This document shows positions 5,560 through 32,000 of a DNA stretch of 32,000 bases, piece by piece (position 1 is the first letter of the stretch; every line of letters starts with the position of its first letter). The stretch is from Nostoc punctiforme PCC 73102 (GTDB taxonomy: Bacteria; Cyanobacteriota; Cyanobacteriia; Cyanobacteriales; Nostocaceae). The notes under the pieces were generated by a model. It did not search any database and was not told where the DNA came from. It saw nothing but the letters and a program-made list of their open reading frames with translations. Location of the stretch: the NCBI RefSeq assembly GCF_000020025.1, contig NC_010628.1, forward strand, positions 7,770,001 to 7,802,000, written 5' to 3'. The translations under genes and the position numbers were made by a program.

Positions 5560-5707
5560 ATTGAAAATCCGTTAGTGTTATTAAGTTTACAGCATAGAGC
5601 GGATCTCTTGTGCGTAAGTTCTATATTAACCTTGCTATTGAGTATCCCAAAATTTTGTTGCTTGTTTCCCCAGTACTCAGTATAAGTTGTCAGACTGTTT
5701 TCAAATT

Positions 5708-5752
5708 GCGATGACCTCCGGTCGGTCGGAGACCATCGCCTCCGGCGGGCGG
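5708..5752. repeat. GC-rich mini-element with an imperfect hairpin (GCGATGACCTCCGGTCGGTCGGAGACCATCGCCTCCGGCGGGCGG)
   Basis: It is intergenic. It shares the 13-mer CGCCTCCGGCGGG with the in-frame insert at 10194-10206. Confidence 0.45.
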
Positions 5753-6029
5753 TTACACCATCACCCAATGCCACAAGAGGGTACAGTCTGAATACGGTTC
5801 GGTTAAAGGAGAAAAGTTTTGAATACATCCTTTACCCCTTACCCCTTCCCCAGACCACAAGGAAAGTAAAAAATGCTTATCCAAACCGTATTGGCCACAG
5901 TCTGGGAAATAAAACCTCTTTCCGAAAACTATGGCGGAGAAATACTCAGGTTTTAAGCTCGTGTTTGGCTTTTTTGTAGATAATTAGAGTGGGTAATTAT
6001 ATGGTAAATCCACCTCAACATAAAAAGCC

Positions 6030-6497
6030 ATGAGACAAAAACCTAAACAACAAATGCGTATATGGGCGGTGTTGTGTCATTTCTCGGCTTTGTTGGGATG
6101 GATATTATTGTTTTTTTTAGTATTTATTGGCATTCCTTTATATTTACCTTTAAATCTTTTAGCTCCCCTGATCATTTGGCACTTTAAAAAATCACAATAT
6201 CCTTGGATTGATTTCCAAGGTAAAGAATCTTTAAATTTTCAATTTTCTTTAACATTATATACTTTGATTGTCATAGCAATATCTTTACTTTTTTTGTTAA
6301 CTAGCTTTGGTCTGGTGATGATTAATAATGGTTCGTCCAATGAAATAAAAAATATTTTAGACGGCTTGTTAATTGTACTGATGTCCTTAATTTTATTCAA
6401 ACTCATATTACAATCGTTTGTAGTGACTTTTGCATCTGTAAAAGCTTACAAGGGTGAGTATTATCGTTACCCTTTTACAATTAGAGTTTTGCGATAA
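6030..6497 (+). CDS. Small integral membrane protein, DUF4870-like
   Basis: A 155-aa ORF with several hydrophobic segments. The pattern WAVLCHFSALLGW...IIWHFKKSQYPWIDFQGKESLNFQFSLTLY resembles DUF4870 proteins. That recognition is from memory only. Confidence 0.55.
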   Translation: MRQKPKQQMRIWAVLCHFSALLGWILLFFLVFIGIPLYLPLNLLAPLIIWHFKKSQYPWIDFQGKESLNFQFSLTLYTLIVIAISLLFLLTSFGLVMINNGSSNEIKNILDGLLIVLMSLILFKLILQSFVVTFASVKAYKGEYYRYPFTIRVLR

Positions 6498-6551
6498 TTG
6501 TAAAATTTATTACAAACAATAAAAATCACATACAATATAGGGAAAAATTAT

Positions 6552-7649
6552 ATGATTGGAATTGCGATCGCAGGCACTGGATTTGGTCAAAAAGTCCACA
6601 TCCCTGGATTCCAAGCACATCCTCAAACTGAGGTAGTTGCTGTCTATCATCGAGATATAAATAAAGCCAAAGCCATAGCAGAATCCCATAATATTCCACA
6701 CGCCTCTGATTCTCTGGCTGATATTGTGGCGTTACCAGAAGTGCAAGCAGTCAGTATCTCTACGCCGCCATTTTTGCACTATGAAATGGCAAAAACTGTA
6801 CTACAAGCTGGGAAACATTTATTACTAGAAAAACCGACAACTTTAAATGCAGTCGAAGCTAAAGAACTTTATCAATTAGCGAAAGCAAAAGGTGTAATTG
6901 CGACTGTAGATTTTGAATTTCGTTTTGTACCAGCATGGCAGTTATTTGCTGAATTACTATCAGAAGATTATGTGGGTGAGTTGCGCCTAATCAAAATTGA
7001 TTGGTTAGGTTCTTCTCGTGCTGATATTTCACGCCCTTGGAATTGGTATTCTGACAAAGACAAAGGAGGTGGTGCATTAGGATCTTTAGGTTCCCACGCC
7101 TTCGATTACATTCACTGGTTATTCGGGCCAGTCCAGAGATTAAACGCCCATTTAAGTACTGCGATTCCTGCAAGAGTTGACCCTGTTAGTGGAGAATCTA
7201 AGCTAGTAAATACAGATGACAACTGTATATTAACCCTGGAATTAGCGAATGGTACACCTTGCCAACTCTCTATCAGCGCGGTTGTTCATGCAGCAAGAAC
7301 TCATTGGGTAGAAGTATATGGCGATCGCGGTACATTAATTGTAGGCAGTGAAAATCAAAAAGATTATATACACGGCTTTCGTGTTTGGGGTTCCCAGCCA
7401 GGTAAACCTCTAACGGAAATAGAAATACCAAATCGGTTAATTTTTCCCAAAAATTATGCTGATGGGCGGATTTCGGCATTTATCCGTGTAGTAGACCAAT
7501 GGGTGCAGGGAATTGAACGCAATCAGGAAATTACACCATCACTGCGGGAAGGAATTTATTCTCAGTTGTTGATGGATTTATCCCATGAATCTCATACAAA
7601 AGCAAGTTGGGTAGATGTACCTAGCTTGGAAAGATTTCTTAGCAACTAG
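6552..7649 (+). CDS. Gfo/Idh/MocA family NAD(P)-dependent oxidoreductase
   Basis: A 365-aa ORF with an N-terminal Rossmann motif (IGIAIAGTGFGQKVHIPGF) and an EKP motif (HLLLEKPTTL). Confidence 0.85.
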   Translation: MIGIAIAGTGFGQKVHIPGFQAHPQTEVVAVYHRDINKAKAIAESHNIPHASDSLADIVALPEVQAVSISTPPFLHYEMAKTVLQAGKHLLLEKPTTLNAVEAKELYQLAKAKGVIATVDFEFRFVPAWQLFAELLSEDYVGELRLIKIDWLGSSRADISRPWNWYSDKDKGGGALGSLGSHAFDYIHWLFGPVQRLNAHLSTAIPARVDPVSGESKLVNTDDNCILTLELANGTPCQLSISAVVHAARTHWVEVYGDRGTLIVGSENQKDYIHGFRVWGSQPGKPLTEIEIPNRLIFPKNYADGRISAFIRVVDQWVQGIERNQEITPSLREGIYSQLLMDLSHESHTKASWVDVPSLERFLSN

Positions 7650-23666: not shown

Positions 23667-23972
23667 CTGAATTTCTGATTTTTGGATAAGTGTTGACTCA
23701 AGAAGCAGGGGGAAAGATATTTAAATTACCGTGTCTGACTGGGTTTCAGAGCAAGTAAATTTATTTATGCCCAAAAGTAAAAATATTTATTATGTCTACA
23801 GTACGCTGCGCGAACGAGATGTGTCACACAAGAAATAATACTTCCTTAGTTCAGAACAAATACATTTATGTATGGGGATTTCCCCCCTGCTCCCTGCCCC
23901 TTTTCCTCTTATTGATTGGATTTTCGATTTTTAACTCCGGCACATCTGCAAGACATTTTTTCTGTATTCCAA

Positions 23973-24045
23973 TTAAAAAGCGCTTGGGAGTGTTGCCGTG
24001 TTTCCACCCCAAACGCTTTTTATTTTTAACTTGCTCCTCACACAC
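23973..24045 (-). ncRNA. Putative ~73-nt sRNA, unit 1 (Yfr2-family-like)
   Basis: On the minus strand TGATATTAT (extended -10) sits at -15 to -7 relative to the first G of GUGUGUGAGGAGCAAGUUAA. A 14-bp hairpin follows, with loop GUGGAAACACGGCAACACU, then UUUUU. Confidence 0.55.
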
Positions 24046-24135
24046 GATTAAATAATATCATTGCTTTAATGAAAAGACGATTAAAGTGAGTGACACTTTT
24101 AAAAGTGTACCAACAATCCAATTTTTATATGCAAA

Positions 24136-24208
24136 TTAAAAAATGCCCGGGAGTGTTGCCGTGTTTCCACCCCAGGCATTTTTTATTCTTAACTTGCTCC
24201 TCACACAC
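24136..24208 (-). ncRNA. Putative ~73-nt sRNA, unit 2 (Yfr2-family-like)
   Basis: Same architecture as unit 1, with TGATATGTT as the -10. The stem sequence differs from units 1 and 3 by compensatory changes while the loop is identical. Confidence 0.55.
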
Positions 24209-24295
24209 AACTAAAACATATCACTACTTTTATCTAATGGCAAGTATATTGAGTGACATTTTCAAAACTGCACAAGCAATCCAATTTCTGACCAA

Positions 24296-24368
24296 TTAAA
24301 AAGCGCTTGGGAGTGTTGCCGTGTTTCCACCCCAAACGCTTTTTACTTTTAACTTGCTCCTCACACAC
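24296..24368 (-). ncRNA. Putative ~73-nt sRNA, unit 3 (Yfr2-family-like)
   Basis: Same architecture as unit 1, with TGATATCTT as the -10. The stem is identical to unit 1. Confidence 0.55.
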
Positions 24369-24450
24369 AAATATAAGATATCACGAATTCAATTATAAAG
24401 AAAGTATATAGTATGACACTTTCTCAACCGTACACCTGACAAGCAATAAT

Positions 24451-25995
24451 TTAGTGTAAAAAGTGACGTACACCAGTTAAAACCATCAGCAAACCCAGGT
24501 CGTTAGCAGCTTTGATTGAATCTTTATCGCGCAGGCTTCCCCCTGGTTGAACAATGGCTGTAATTCCTGCGGCTGCGGCTGTTCTCACGGAATCATCGAA
24601 GGGGAAGAATCCATCGCTGGCCAGTATTGCACCTTTGGCTTTTTCTCCAGCTTGTTCTAGAGCAATTTTAACTGATCCGACGCGGTTCATTTGACCAGCG
24701 CCTACTCCTAGTGTAGTGCGATCGCTTGTCACAACAATGGCATTCGATTTAACGTGTTTGCAAACTTTCCAAGCAAACAGCAATTCGGCTAATTCGCTGT
24801 CGGTGGGTTGACGTTCGGTGACTACTTGCCATTGACTAGTATCAGCAACAATGTCATCGGCGGTTTGGACAAGAAAACCACCTGCGATCGCTTTCACTGT
24901 ATCTTTAGGGCCACTGCTCAAATCAGCTAGAGTCAAAACCCGCACGTTAGATTTCTTAGCCAGGATTTCTTGAGCTTCGGCTTCACAACTTGGTGCAACC
25001 ACGCATTCTAAAAATGTTTTGGTTAACTCGCTAGCTGTAGCCGCATCAATCGGACGGTTGAGTGCGACAATTCCACCAAAGGCAGAAGTAGAGTCAGCGT
25101 TAAAAGCTTTTTTGTACGCTTCAGAAATACTGCTTCCCAGCGCCGTACCACAGGGGTTTGTATGTTTGATAATCGTTGCGGCTGGAGTATCAGTGAATTC
25201 AGCAATAATTCGGCGTGCAGCTTCTAAATCAACTAAATTATTGTAACTAAGTTCTTTACCTTGGAGTTTCGTCGCGGCTGCCCATCCCGTTGGAGTAGTA
25301 CCAGTTTGATACCAGGTGGCGGGTTGATGAGGGTTTTCGCCGTAACGCAGAGATTGTAATTGTGTACCGCTAAGGGTGTACTGCTGTGTATCTGCGAGAT
25401 AAGATGCGAACTGACAAGTCAGCGCTTGCGCTATCGCTTGATCGTAACTAGCAGTGTGCGAAAATCCTTTTAAGGCCGCCTTTTGCCGAAACTCTAGGGA
25501 TGCTACACCGTTATTTTGGCGCAATTCCTCCAAATACTCGTCATACTGTGCTGGGTCGCATAATACAGCCAGATGTGCAAAGTTTTTCGATGATGCCCTT
25601 AACATAGCTGGGCCACCGATATCAATTTGTTCAACAGCTTCTAATAATGTTACCCCTGGTTTAGCGATCGTTTCCTCAAAAGGATATAGATTCACCACCA
25701 CTAAATCAATCGGGCGAATTTGGTTATTTTCTAAATCTGTAATATCTTGGGGAACATCTCGCCGCGCCAAAATTCCGCCATGAATCCGGGGATGTAGGGT
25801 TTTGACTCGACCACCTAAAATTTCTGGTGAACCTGTGTAATCTGCAACTTTGGTGACAGGGAGTCCCGCATCTTTGAGTGCTTGGGCTGTTCCCCCACTG
25901 CTGATTAAATCAAAGTCAAATTCTTCAACCAAGCTACGGGCTAGGTCAATTATACCAGTTTTGTTAGATACACTCAGCAGGGCTAGACGCGCCAT
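24451..25995 (-). CDS. purH: Bifunctional AICAR transformylase / IMP cyclohydrolase
   Basis: The N-terminus MARLALLSVSNKTG... and the C-terminus ...LTGVRHFLH are typical of PurH. The ATG at 25995 is preferred. The ORF is open up to 26046. Confidence 0.95.
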   Translation of the reverse strand: MARLALLSVSNKTGIIDLARSLVEEFDFDLISSGGTAQALKDAGLPVTKVADYTGSPEILGGRVKTLHPRIHGGILARRDVPQDITDLENNQIRPIDLVVVNLYPFEETIAKPGVTLLEAVEQIDIGGPAMLRASSKNFAHLAVLCDPAQYDEYLEELRQNNGVASLEFRQKAALKGFSHTASYDQAIAQALTCQFASYLADTQQYTLSGTQLQSLRYGENPHQPATWYQTGTTPTGWAAATKLQGKELSYNNLVDLEAARRIIAEFTDTPAATIIKHTNPCGTALGSSISEAYKKAFNADSTSAFGGIVALNRPIDAATASELTKTFLECVVAPSCEAEAQEILAKKSNVRVLTLADLSSGPKDTVKAIAGGFLVQTADDIVADTSQWQVVTERQPTDSELAELLFAWKVCKHVKSNAIVVTSDRTTLGVGAGQMNRVGSVKIALEQAGEKAKGAILASDGFFPFDDSVRTAAAAGITAIVQPGGSLRDKDSIKAANDLGLLMVLTGVRHFLH

Positions 25996-26178
25996 TGATC
26001 GATTCCTTAAAAGTAGGCTAGAAGCGAAGGATCTCAAGTTTTGCATAAGCCTTGGTTCAGTTCAAGACCATTAGAAATAATGGCGTTAATAACTATCTGA
26101 CCATCACCTTTCTCAATTAAGACTGCTATAAGTGGCAGGTATTGTGCCAAGGCGACATCTATTCTTCGTCTTCTTCTT

Positions 26179-27319: not shown

Positions 27320-30300
27320 ATGCCTTCACAAGGTACTGGCGCTAACGTTGACCCGCGATCGCTTAAGCCGTCTATTGACCTCGCTACAGTCATAGAGTTA
27401 CTTGCTCAAGCTATAGATCCTAGCAGTAATCAGGCAAATCATAACCAGCTAAATCCTAAAGGTATGCAGCTGTTTGAATTTGATGACAAGCAAAATAAAC
27501 GACTGAGAATAAGTACTTCAGCCGTTATGTATCGGCTATTTGCACAACCTAAATTTAAAGAAGCTTTTAACCCTGCTCCTGGCGGTGGGTTTATTCAAAA
27601 CTTATCGATGCCAGCAAAAGGTAATAAGTCGCGCGTTGGTGGTTGTTTGAGTGATGGTAATGCCACAAAGTTACCTGGTGCGGTAGATAGATTAATGGCT
27701 GCTATTGACCAAGCACTTAATATTGCTGTACCTTCCGAGAGCTTATTATCAACATTGCTGTTAGATAAAGCTGAACAGCAACTCAAACATCTTGCTAAAA
27801 AAGCAGGTACGACTTTCCAGAATATACCCAATACTGCCAATCTCGTACACCTAGCATTTCAAGCTGGAGATACAAAGGATAACAAGTCTGTGGCGACAGT
27901 TATTTCTGCACGCGAACGAGTTGAAAATACTGATTATTTTGAGCAAATGTGCAGTGCTGCCGCGCAATATTTGAAAGACGAACGTGACAACGATGAAGAT
28001 GATGTGGATTCATCGATCGCAACTTTGGAAGAGGAAAAAAATCGATATGATAGCCAAATACAGCGTTTTTTAAATTTCATAGACGACGAAGCATTATCAC
28101 GCGTCCGATTGACAATTAGCTTTCGGATTATGGAGGCGATCGCAGAAAATGCCCGCTCAAGTAATGACCCAGATTACCAACTTTTAGTAGAGTATGTCAA
28201 TCGAATACTCATTCTAGTTGAATCTGCTAAGGAAGAAGGCTATACGGTTGATTTAATGACTCATTTCGGTAGTGCAGCTGAGTTCGACTTGGCAGATGAA
28301 CTTAGCAAAGCGACCTTTTATTATTGTCTAGCTGTTTGGCCTGAGTGGAAAACTCAAATTTTCGAGCAAAAGACTAAAAATCAAGTAGAGCGTGAAGTAA
28401 GTTATCGTTTTCGAGTCAATGGGCAAAATCCAGAATTAGGCAAACCTGCTTTTGAAGTACGACTCGATCAAATTAGAGAATATTTACTGAGTAATGATGA
28501 ATCTTCCTTACAAAAACCTTGGGAAATTTGTCGTCGTTTAGCTCAACTGATCTTTTTGGCAGTAGTCGTTCCCAAAAACGACGAGGAACCGCTAACTAAA
28601 GAATCACTAACAGATATGGTGAATCAACTCCTAGCAAATTTTCAATCGCAGGGCATAGAAGCTATTCGCCAGACTTTAGACGAATTACAGGAACGCTCTG
28701 AGTCAATGAAATCAATCGCCAAGGCTCTAATGAAAGTACTGCGCGATAGGAGCCAAAAAGTCATATCTCAAGTTCACGATCGCTCCTCACAACAATTCAT
28801 CTGTGTAAAAAGCAGCATCATTAATTGGGATCGCCTAGAAGGGGCAACATTAGGTGTGAGAAAGTTGCTTGTAGAGCCACAAGAAAATACTAGCGAAAAG
28901 GTTGAATGGTTCAAACATATTGAAATTTGTGAGCAACCAGCAAAATCTCTATTTTCGGTTAAGGTTACTGCCGATCTGTCGGAATATGACTTAAAAACTA
29001 AAGATACACTTAGTCAATTACGGGCAAAGCGTATATTACCGCAGAAACTCCTCCAAGTTTGTTGGGTTCCTCGTTCTTGGCAGAAGGGAGAAGATCGTCA
29101 ATGGACTTATGAGCTATCTACAAATGCTTCTCAATTTGCTGGGTGGGCATTATCAGCCGCAATCATAGTTGAATACGATGTTGAAACTGTGAGGCGACGA
29201 GCGAATACAAGAGACTCTGAGGAAAATAAGCAGTATCATGCAGCCGCAGTCACCGCCTTTGCTGTGTTAGTTTACTGCTGTTTGTGGCGGATTATTAGAC
29301 GATTACAAAAATGCGAACAGGAAACATCGGTTGACTTTACAACCTTAATGCTACGACTGCAAGAAACAGGAAAACAACTAGATGATGATAAAGACAAGAG
29401 CGGTGATGCTTACGTTTACGCAGCCGCCCAAACTTTAGAAGCCATACTAGGTGAAGATACCCCGATCCGAATGCAGGGACTTATTTTAGATAATGTGGTG
29501 AAACAAACCAAAAAAAACCAAGATTTTATTAAATCTGGTACTTTTAAGGCGTTTTTAAGTGCGTTTCCACTTTGCATTAGTAGCCCAGATTCTCATTCAG
29601 CCCCCAAGATTGGTTTAATTTCCTACGCCAGCCGTCCCTGTAACGAGGGAAATTTTCCCAATGATAGTGAAAAGGCTTATCTTTTTCTCACTCAAAGTTA
29701 TATTGCTACAGCCGTTAGTGAACCGTTTATAGGTTATGAACTTAAAAGAGAGCGGATGCAGTCTGATGTGCTTGATTCTCCAGAACAGCTGAAAACGCAA
29801 CGCCTAGTTCAAGAAGAAATTCGTCACCTCAGAGCTAAAGAATGTCAGCACATTATTTTATTAGCTCATGCCTATGGCGATCGCCGCATTAATCGAGCCG
29901 CAGATAACAATTCTTCTTTAATACCTACAGAATTTTTAGAAGCAGTCTTTCAAACGTTTCCTGATATCAACATTTATCCAATGATGCGGGATGTATTTCC
30001 GGCTACACGCTTGCGCGAACGAGGTTACAGTGAAGCGGCATTTGAAATTTTGCAAGCTGGAGATCATTCAGATTTTCAGCGATCTGTTAGGGCAGATTAC
30101 TTTCGTGATTTAATTCCGGTTTATACTTTTGCCACACTTCATGCTATTCAAGCAGAAGAGCGCTTACAATCTGGTTTCTGCATTTATTTTTTAGTATCGG
30201 ATGGAAAAGTTAGCAATATTAACTGGACTGAACGCGCTCGTCAGCATTTGATTAATCCTGATTCAGACTCTCGTATTCATCCTTGCTTACTAGCTGTACT

Positions 30301-30505
30301 ACGGGGCTTGCATTTTATTGAAGCTGAACGAGGTGTGTACAAAAGTCAACTTAGCCCAGTACTAGATCCATTTAGTTGGATATCGCCTAATACAGTTGAG
30401 GAGGCTGGTGAAGTGAAAGTTCTCCACTCCCGCCGCAAAGGACAGGTATTACTTAATTATCGCGCTGTACTCACCTACGTTTCTCAAGTTCTGCACAGGA
30501 AGTAA
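27320..30505 (+). CDS. Large hypothetical protein (1061 aa) with no recognisable family
   Basis: A long uninterrupted ORF with host-like composition and an SD-like AAGGA upstream. I could find no Walker, nuclease, HD, methylase or helicase motifs by eye. There is one strongly hydrophobic helix (AAAVTAFAVLVYCCLWRII). Confidence 0.8.
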   Translation: MPSQGTGANVDPRSLKPSIDLATVIELLAQAIDPSSNQANHNQLNPKGMQLFEFDDKQNKRLRISTSAVMYRLFAQPKFKEAFNPAPGGGFIQNLSMPAKGNKSRVGGCLSDGNATKLPGAVDRLMAAIDQALNIAVPSESLLSTLLLDKAEQQLKHLAKKAGTTFQNIPNTANLVHLAFQAGDTKDNKSVATVISARERVENTDYFEQMCSAAAQYLKDERDNDEDDVDSSIATLEEEKNRYDSQIQRFLNFIDDEALSRVRLTISFRIMEAIAENARSSNDPDYQLLVEYVNRILILVESAKEEGYTVDLMTHFGSAAEFDLADELSKATFYYCLAVWPEWKTQIFEQKTKNQVEREVSYRFRVNGQNPELGKPAFEVRLDQIREYLLSNDESSLQKPWEICRRLAQLIFLAVVVPKNDEEPLTKESLTDMVNQLLANFQSQGIEAIRQTLDELQERSESMKSIAKALMKVLRDRSQKVISQVHDRSSQQFICVKSSIINWDRLEGATLGVRKLLVEPQENTSEKVEWFKHIEICEQPAKSLFSVKVTADLSEYDLKTKDTLSQLRAKRILPQKLLQVCWVPRSWQKGEDRQWTYELSTNASQFAGWALSAAIIVEYDVETVRRRANTRDSEENKQYHAAAVTAFAVLVYCCLWRIIRRLQKCEQETSVDFTTLMLRLQETGKQLDDDKDKSGDAYVYAAAQTLEAILGEDTPIRMQGLILDNVVKQTKKNQDFIKSGTFKAFLSAFPLCISSPDSHSAPKIGLISYASRPCNEGNFPNDSEKAYLFLTQSYIATAVSEPFIGYELKRERMQSDVLDSPEQLKTQRLVQEEIRHLRAKECQHIILLAHAYGDRRINRAADNNSSLIPTEFLEAVFQTFPDINIYPMMRDVFPATRLRERGYSEAAFEILQAGDHSDFQRSVRADYFRDLIPVYTFATLHAIQAEERLQSGFCIYFLVSDGKVSNINWTERARQHLINPDSDSRIHPCLLAVLRGLHFIEAERGVYKSQLSPVLDPFSWISPNTVEEAGEVKVLHSRRKGQVLLNYRAVLTYVSQVLHRK

Positions 30506-32000
30506 TGGAATCATCCTTTCTACAACAAGCCTCTATTTGGGGGCAGATATTTGAAATTGCTGTTAAACGCGGTGTTTTACAACAGTTGATTCACAGAAAC
30601 TTACTGTTGAACGATCATCCTGTTTTCCAGCTTTGGCAATCTCACAAAAATGCAGATGTCTCCCACCAACTGGTGAAAGCATTCAAAATAACAGATCCCA
30701 ATCACAAAGAATGGGTAGAAACAATGCTGCGTCATCTGCTGGTACTTGGCTATGGTTTAGGTTGGACAACAATGCGTGAATGTCTCCACCACAGTCAAAT
30801 TAAACAACCTAAACTAGAAGCAATTTGGTGTCCATTGACATTGCCAGGGCAGCAAATGCAACGAGATGAAGAAAAAGAAGAGACAGCAAAAGCATTTCAA
30901 GAAACTTTCAATATACCAGGGAAACCAGATGAGAACTTAGTCAACCGAGGACAACCAGCCAGAGCCGATTTTATTTTATGGCTGTCCAACGAATTTAGTT
31001 CCCACAGAAACACAGATAAAGATGAAGTAATACCCTCTAAAGACTTTAAAAATGTCTTCTCCCAGCCAAATGATCTAAAGCACAAAAAAATTGAGAATTT
31101 AATTCTCTGTTTGGAATTTTCGTATAACGCACCCATCAAATTTGCAGATTTTAAAAATGAAGCTCCTCACACAGAAGAAATAAGTCGTTATGCACGTTAC
31201 ATGGAATCACGGGGGGTCTTCTCTAGAGTTTGTGCAGAGGTTGAGGGTGAAGAATTTTCTCTCTCTAAAAGGCTGGAAAGTTTTCTGTCAGCATTTAGCG
31301 GTCAAGATAAACCATTATTCAAGCTCTGTCAGTCATCATCTTATACTGAGCGCCTGATTCATGTGTTACGCAAGTGTAAACGCTTAGAAGGAAGTTGTCA
31401 TGCTAGAGCGATCGCTGTCACATCCAATGGTATTGAAAGTCTTGCTGCTCAATTCTGGGGTGTGGAATCTGAACCAGATACTAGAGCCAAGTTAATGAAA
31501 TCTTTGGGGCAAGCATATTGCAAGGCTAAACATTCAGATGATGATGTGCCGCTCGATCTAGATGCAGAAATTCTTTTGGTGTTCAAGAAGCTCTTAGGAG
31601 GACTACCGTCTGCTTTTAAAGAACAAGCAAAGTCTCTAGCTGAAAAACCGCCTTTAGGTCAATACTCCCACTTTCTCTTTCATGAAAATGTGACGGACTT
31701 TTACAACCCAATGGGTGAAATTAGCAAGGATGAGGCGATCGCATCTATTGAAGACCACAACGCATTACATGAGTTTTTTGGTAGCGACCCAGTTACACAA
31801 ATTGCTAATTTTGTCAATCAAATCAATCCTAACAAGGAAACAATTCCTCTGCGACAAGTACACGAAGCAGCAGTTTTTGTCGGTCTGAGTGCTGCTCAAG
31901 TCGGTAAAATTAACGTCCTAGCTTTGGAAGGAAATCCGGGTATTGGTAAAACTACTGCTGTGATTAAATTTCTTAAACAGCAGTCTCAAGGCTTCTTATT
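30505..32000 (+). CDS. Large hypothetical P-loop NTPase, 5'-partial view (at least 498 aa, continues beyond the window)
   Basis: This ORF is absent from the supplied track because it has no stop in the window. I translated it from the ATG at 30505 (MESSFLQQASIWGQIFEIAVKRGV...) with no stop through 32000. Its ATG overlaps the upstream TAA (TAATG). A Walker A motif, LEGNPGIGKTTAV, is encoded at 31930-31956. Confidence 0.75.
   Translation, partial: MESSFLQQASIWGQIFEIAVKRGVLQQLIHRNLLLNDHPVFQLWQSHKNADVSHQLVKAFKITDPNHKEWVETMLRHLLVLGYGLGWTTMRECLHHSQIKQPKLEAIWCPLTLPGQQMQRDEEKEETAKAFQETFNIPGKPDENLVNRGQPARADFILWLSNEFSSHRNTDKDEVIPSKDFKNVFSQPNDLKHKKIENLILCLEFSYNAPIKFADFKNEAPHTEEISRYARYMESRGVFSRVCAEVEGEEFSLSKRLESFLSAFSGQDKPLFKLCQSSSYTERLIHVLRKCKRLEGSCHARAIAVTSNGIESLAAQFWGVESEPDTRAKLMKSLGQAYCKAKHSDDDVPLDLDAEILLVFKKLLGGLPSAFKEQAKSLAEKPPLGQYSHFLFHENVTDFYNPMGEISKDEAIASIEDHNALHEFFGSDPVTQIANFVNQINPNKETIPLRQVHEAAVFVGLSAAQVGKINVLALEGNPGIGKTTAVIKFLKQQSQGFL

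Follow-up and report, generated by a model that had tools for sequence, protein, structure and literature searches.

The segment directly downstream of purH in the window (by which we mean the whole 32,000-nt stretch of Nostoc punctiforme PCC 73102 DNA analysed here) very probably carries three tandem, independently promoted genes for small RNAs of the Yfr2 family, each about 70 nt long and lying on the purH strand, which would titrate the small RNA Yfr1; we put the probability of this reading at about 0.9. As the first-pass annotation of this DNA had noticed, the segment consists of three tandem units of about 160 bp read on the minus strand: Tandem Repeats Finder returned a single array (23969-24423, period 163, 2.8 copies, 77% matches), and each unit has its own match to the Rfam model Cyano-1. 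The same annotation had placed the array directly downstream of purH and on its strand, which agrees with the TIGR00355 match that identifies the gene (Table 1).

Table 1. Features of the Yfr2 array and its neighbourhood (window coordinates; promoter positions are relative to the predicted RNA 5' end)
Feature	Coordinates	Strand	Details
purH (AICAR formyltransferase/IMP cyclohydrolase)	24451-26046	minus	NCBIfam TIGR00355, 736.6 bits
Conserved upstream block, unit 3	24404..24432	minus	NtcA-box-like GTCATACTATATAC at -49 to -36
Extended -10, unit 3	24375..24383	minus	TGATATCTT; read from sequence
Yfr2 unit 3, nearest purH	24295..24368	minus	5' end 24368; hairpin 24298-24344; Cyano-1 58.4 bits; R1 107.5 bits; fold -25.5 kcal/mol, z -4.28
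Conserved upstream block, unit 2	24244..24272	minus	imperfect palindrome GTGCAGTTTTGAAAATGTCAC and NtcA-box-like GTCACTCAATATAC
Predicted promoter, unit 2	24215..24243	minus	promoter scan; -35 TTGCCA, 17-bp spacer, extended -10 TGATATGTT (24215-24223; hexamer TATGTT); 9/12 matches with TG
Yfr2 unit 2	24135..24208	minus	5' end 24208; hairpin 24138-24184; Cyano-1 54.1 bits; R1 107.1 bits; fold -25.8 kcal/mol, z -3.69
Conserved upstream block, unit 1	24081..24109	minus	perfect 16-bp palindrome ACACTTTTAAAAGTGT (24093-24108, centred about -55.5); degenerate NtcA-like box GTCACTCACTTTAA
Extended -10, unit 1	24052..24060	minus	TGATATTAT; read from sequence
Yfr2 unit 1, distal copy	23972..24045	minus	5' end 24045; hairpin 23975-24021; Cyano-1 57.1 bits; R1 107.9 bits; fold -25.5 kcal/mol, z -4.16

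When the whole window was scanned against Rfam, all three units matched Cyano-1 (RF01701), the Rfam name of the Yfr2 family (PMC8400943), over the full length of the model (positions 1-69 of 69, minus strand) and with scores above its gathering score of 41 bits. The scan of the window returned no families except Cyano-1 and CRISPR-DR5, and NsiR1 was without a match. The published hallmarks of Yfr2 are a conserved unpaired 5' end of 8-13 nt that contains GUGUGAGGA, and a conserved 12-nt loop (GGAAACA...) carried by a long helix with a bulge at position -4 from the loop (PMC2662882). Free 5' end, 12-nt loop and -4 bulge are all present in the folds of the window units, and GUGUGUGAGGAG is invariant in the three of them as well as in 52 aligned units. 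The Cyano-1 scores, obtained by a covariance-model search that the first-pass annotation had proposed, and the structural hallmarks together bear out its identification of a triplicated Yfr2-like locus.

Each unit is predicted to yield an RNA of about 71-74 nt, whose transcription could start at G1 or at G3 of GUGUGUGAGGAG. The layout is the same in each: a single-stranded GUGUGUGAGGAG at the 5' end is joined by an A-rich linker to a long terminator-like hairpin with the loop GAAACACGGCAA, which closes with a U-run at the end of the minus-strand RNA. The mean unpaired probability is 0.73 for nt 1-13 and 0.99 for the loop. On reading the sequence, we found the three hairpins at the coordinates first proposed for them, and the 19-nt stretch originally described as their loop (AGTGTTGCCGTGTTTCCAC on the plus strand) is indeed identical in all three units. 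This stretch is nevertheless longer than the true loop: the minimum-energy and centroid folds agree on a 12-nt loop, three closing pairs and then a bulged U, so that the 19 nt include three further pairs (GUG/CAC) and the bulged U and the true loop is the 12-nt GAAACACGGCAA.

For comparison, 80 cyanobacterial loci were gathered with purH as the anchor; the nearest are from Nostoc species (95% PurH amino-acid identity, 90-95% nucleotide identity), the best being Nostoc sp. NMS2 (L005). A covariance model built from 52 distinct units (R1) was searched against these loci and the window, where it found exactly three units. In the 52-unit alignment, 99.2% of the cells of the helix are paired and 7 of the 17 pairs are changed on both sides; none of 500 shuffles was as good, and slid controls reached 41-62% pairing. 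Stem bases covary around an invariant loop, and the 5' motif is invariant as well. Alignment of the three window units confirmed that the stem of unit 2 departs from those of units 1 and 3 in five pairs, three of them compensatory (G:C to A:U, C:G to U:A and U:A to C:G), the remaining two differences being one-sided and involving G.U. The stem variant of unit 2, AAUGCC/GGCAUU, is also found in L001, L003, L005 and L010, among others; its being common to several relatives indicates that the paralogues are older than these species.

The same alignment bears on the strand. Each window unit contains one pair that is G.U in the minus-strand RNA and C.A in the plus-strand RNA, which favours minus-strand transcription, as had been argued earlier. 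Over all aligned units, 65 cells are G.U on the purH strand, and pairing reaches 99.2% there versus 92.6% on the opposite strand. Similarly, the minus-strand folds (-25.5 to -25.8 kcal/mol, z -3.7 to -4.3) are more stable than the plus-strand ones (-19.5 to -20.2 kcal/mol), and the R1 score is about 107 bits on the minus strand versus 21-25 bits on the plus strand. Within what sequence by itself can show, the G.U bias and the R1 scores settle which strand is transcribed. A plus-strand RNA or plus-strand terminator was rejected on the grounds of its weaker folds, its low R1 scores and the 65 G.U cells, which become mismatches.

The units are not peculiar to the window. In the R1 search, 30 of the 80 loci had units directly downstream of purH and on the purH strand, and the comparison of copy number among relatives that had been suggested beforehand gave 1-4 copies per locus. 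The genera concerned are Nostoc, Anabaena, Aphanizomenon, Dolichospermum, Fischerella, Calothrix, Rivularia, Stigonema, Spirirestis, Mojavia, Iphinoe and Rhizonema, together with two metagenome genomes with Rivularia-like units. Four copies are found in Spirirestis (L014), three in many Nostoc and in Calothrix NIES-4105 (L022), two in others and one in Aphanizomenon and Dolichospermum (region 5600-6700, L001-L062); in L005 an insertion of about 260 bp splits units 1 and 2. R1 found no unit at the purH locus of Tolypothrix carrinoi (L019), Richelia sinica (L020) or a Chroococcidiopsis MAG (L026), nor in any Oscillatoriales, Leptolyngbya, Microcystis or other non-heterocystous locus among the 80. 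The Yfr2 family has been described as sitting at unconserved loci (PMC6778093; PMC2662882). A joint mention of Yfr2 and purH was not found in the searchable literature, in which the purH-Yfr2 linkage of these 30 Nostocales-type loci may be undescribed; it would be a small increment.

Each unit would be transcribed from a promoter of its own. In all three, as had been pointed out, an extended -10 (TGATATNNT) ends exactly 6 nt upstream of the first G of GTGTGTGAGGAG. When the 110 nt upstream of 64 units from the window and its relatives were aligned, TGnTAnnnT was present at -15 in 50 units and a TTGCC(A) -35 in many; in the window, units 1 and 3 have weak -35 regions. These promoters weigh against the view that the hairpins are mainly intrinsic terminators or 3'-UTR elements of purH and the small RNAs processing products of purH read-through. 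Several features do suit that view: the array lies on the purH strand, unit 3 begins just 82 nt past the purH stop codon, a U-run ends each hairpin, and no other terminator hairpin was seen by eye between purH and unit 3 (a terminator scan returned zero sites, which is uninformative for the 12-nt-loop hairpins of the Yfr2 units since the scan admits 3-8-nt loops only). Yet a single terminator would suffice, and there are three complete units; a terminator would also leave unexplained the invariant 5' motif and loop on a covarying stem, the TGnTAnnnT placed 6 nt upstream of that motif in 50 of 64 units, and the near-consensus -35/-10 of unit 2. Moreover, Synechocystis yfr2a, which like the window array follows a co-oriented gene, has a start of its own 93-94 nt past the trxA stop (PMC2662882), and PMC4734099 Table S3 lists a Yfr2 start site for Nostoc PCC 7120. 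We therefore consider the terminator view improbable as an account of the array. The terminator and sRNA roles are compatible for unit 3, and, no terminator having been seen between purH and unit 3, some Yfr2-containing RNA could come from purH read-through.

That the units are a non-functional repeat or mobile element (MITE-like or REP-like), or small-peptide genes, can be dismissed with still greater assurance: the tandem repetition and the minus-strand mechanical ORFs that begin at the GTG of units 1 and 3 (23866-24045 and 24234-24368; 59 and 44 aa) would suit it, but within the window the units occur at one locus only and in constant orientation, they keep a fixed position after purH in 30 loci of different genera, their stem changes are compensatory, they match a curated RNA family, Cyano-1, and the coding frame is broken in relatives by linker lengths (18, 19, 24 and 25 nt) that do not differ by multiples of three and by in-frame stops in several units, for which reason the coding reading was rejected.

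Upstream of the predicted promoters of the Yfr2 units, the 64-unit alignment reveals a conserved block at about -64 to -36, whose motif is confined, within the window, to this array. GT-N10-AC starts exactly at -49 in 31 of the 64 units, most often as GTCAC-N6-TAC; conserved flanks around an interior that varies from genus to genus, as seen here, are typical of protein-binding sites. The element reads GTC-N8-TAC (-49 to -36) in units 2 and 3, where it stands 23 nt ahead of the -10, and is degenerate in unit 1. In NtcA-activated promoters a GTA-N8-TAC box lies about 22 nt ahead of a TAN3T -10 box, and a good -35, as in unit 2, is unusual for them. The 23-nt spacing resembles that of NtcA-activated promoters, which would fit the nitrogen induction reported for Yfr2 (see below). 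An imperfect palindrome, CAsTT-N4-AAsTG, centred near -55, overlaps or adjoins the upstream side of GTC-N8-TAC, and its symmetry over all units is moderate (4.0 of 9 positions versus about 2.5 in the background). We hypothesize that the upstream block is a regulator site, possibly NtcA-like. By contrast, the CGRE1 site of PlmA (PMM1637) in yfr2 promoters, a 21-22-nt palindrome flanked by GTTG or GTTA and the inverted repeat that begins 55-57 nt upstream of the start site (PMC6191309), was rejected as a candidate: no GTTG...CAAC or GTTA...TAAC element was found in the unit promoters, which misfit the published description (the comparison being by description only). This motif is a feature of marine yfr2 promoters and is absent from the window units.

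The 5' end of the RNAs matches Yfr1. The ultraconserved undecamer of Yfr1 is 5'-ACUCCUCACAC-3' (PMC2190773), and GUGUGAGGAG, which the first-pass annotation had singled out as an anti-Yfr1 5' end, is the exact complement of 10 of its 11 nt; this 10-nt pairing of the Yfr2 5' end with the Yfr1 motif amounts to -17.9 kcal/mol. The window contains no Yfr1, and the partner used for cofolding was a Nostocales-type Yfr1 recovered from metagenomes (loci L081-L200); it scores 62 bits on the Rfam Yfr1 model and matches the PCC 7120 Yfr1 primers. In the cofold, nt 1-12 of Yfr2 and the single-stranded linker of Yfr1 form 12 bp, and zero hairpins are opened. The ddG is -20.0 kcal/mol, versus -10.4 +/- 2.5 for shuffled 5' ends, of which 1 in 200 gave a comparable value (-20.3).

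The GGAAACA of the Yfr2 loop is also complementary to Yfr1, namely to UGUUUCC in the 3' arm of the 5' hairpin of Nostocales Yfr1 (65 of 92 distinct Yfr1 sequences; an example bearing (U)GUUUCC is L118 932-996 (-)). A second Yfr1-Yfr2 contact through this loop was considered and rejected, since UGUUUCC is base-paired inside Yfr1 and is unused in the cofold.

The Yfr2-Yfr1 pairing to which the first-pass annotation had referred is borne out by published experiments in Prochlorococcus (PMC6778093) and Nostoc PCC 7120 (PMC6974561). In Prochlorococcus, Yfr1 and Yfr10 are recovered in a pull-down with Yfr2, which also stops Yfr1 from acting on its targets, and the binding shields Yfr2 from RNase E (PMC6778093). 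Yfr2 of Nostoc PCC 7120 is encoded by "four repeats"; it bound Yfr1 in a gel-shift assay and is up on nitrogen deprivation (PMC6974561); the model put forward for this strain is that Yfr2 traps Yfr1 and that the repression of cell-wall genes is thereby relieved (PMC6974561; repeated in PMC11797042). From orthology, we infer that the three RNAs of the window act like PCC 7120 Yfr2. By analogy with PCC 7120 and Prochlorococcus, the 5' end of Yfr2 would base-pair with the ACUCCUCACAC linker of the constitutive sRNA Yfr1, and Yfr2, once induced (for instance by nitrogen deprivation), would titrate Yfr1 off its mRNA targets, which in Nostoc are genes for the cell wall and outer membrane. The three copies would provide a higher dose and may permit copy-specific control.

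The closest known counterpart is indeed PCC 7120 Yfr2 (Brenes-Alvarez et al. 2020, PMC6974561), which shares with the window units the 5' motif GUGUGAGGAGCAAGUU, the loop GGAAACACGGCAACAC, the terminator stem, the multi-copy layout and the Yfr1 complementarity. The in-vitro-transcription primers used for it, GGGTGTGAGGAGCAAGTTGAAA and AAAAAGCATCTGGGAGTGTTGC (PMC6974561), fit the window units bar a few stem and linker bases, whereas the two sets differ in the number of repeats (four versus three in the window) and in the stems of their paralogues. Yfr2-5 of Prochlorococcus MED4 and Yfr2a-c of Synechocystis PCC 6803 share the single-stranded 5' motif, the 12-nt loop and the -4 bulge; pairing with Yfr1 that blocks its action is documented for them (PMC6778093), and the window units are likewise complementary to Yfr1. 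They differ in RNA length (65-95 nt) and in their linkers, and their copies are dispersed at unconserved loci, whereas those of the window are tandem and purH-linked across Nostocales-type genomes. NsiR1, in Nostocales, is reportedly encoded by tandem repeats, each with its own promoter and terminator, and the NsiR1 array lies upstream of hetF. The array of the window resembles the NsiR1 array of heterocystous cyanobacteria (Ionescu et al. 2010) in arrangement alone, both being direct-repeat sRNA genes, and differs from it in RNA family (the window is without an Rfam NsiR1 match), in the heterocyst-specific regulation of NsiR1 and in locus. The purH-linked locus thus fits Yfr2/Cyano-1 by every testable criterion, and it has an orthologue among the Nostoc sRNAs studied by experiment.

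A few other elements of the window were recorded. Just past the distal Yfr2 unit lies a C-rich stretch, GGGGATTTCCCCCCTGCTCCCTGCCCCTTTTCC (23870-23915), which may be a short dispersed Nostoc repeat; a similar C-rich segment is found between the Yfr2 units of L005 (upstream of position 6415). Two consecutive large plus-strand ORFs with a 4-nt overlap, 27320-30505 (1061 aa) and 30502-32000 (at least 499 aa, running off the window), gave no Pfam match. Inside the second, at 31162-31172 on the plus strand, lies GCTCCTCACAC, which is exactly complementary over 11 nt to the Yfr2 5' end GUGUGAGGAGC and includes 10 of the 11 nt of the Yfr1 motif. No Rfam match was obtained near 31162 even at E <= 1, and by our estimate roughly 0.02-0.06 such matches are expected by chance per window; judged from its sequence, the site could be a Yfr2 target or a chance match. 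At the other end, a CRISPR array of at least 20 repeats occupies positions 1-1303 and reaches the start of the window; its repeat, the 37-nt GTTTCAATCCCTAATAGGGATTTTGATGAATTGCAAT on the plus strand, recurs with a period of about 71 nt and scores 54.9 bits each time on Rfam CRISPR-DR5. The ORFs nearest to it encode a 2OG-Fe(II) oxygenase and a 2'-5' RNA ligase-like protein and are not cas genes.

The family and the mechanism being already known, the identification of the Yfr2 array is correct but ordinary: automated Rfam annotation would label the locus, which is a textbook case of Yfr2/Cyano-1 and has little weight as a discovery. Its useful but modest by-products are a clean comparative set of 52-64 units that displays covariation, and a purH-Yfr2 synteny in Nostocales-type genomes, among which copy number varies. 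One may speculate, though we think it unlikely to hold in full, that Yfr2 of heterocystous Nostocales is an old purH-linked array of 1-4 copies, in which copy number and copy-specific operators would set the threshold of a nitrogen-dependent titration of Yfr1; under the same tentative proposal, the conserved operator would be the NtcA-box-like GTC-N8-TAC that overlaps the imperfect palindrome near -55, and read-through from purH could link the array to purine/AICAR metabolism. The conserved promoter block could help in finding what regulates Yfr2 in heterocystous cyanobacteria.
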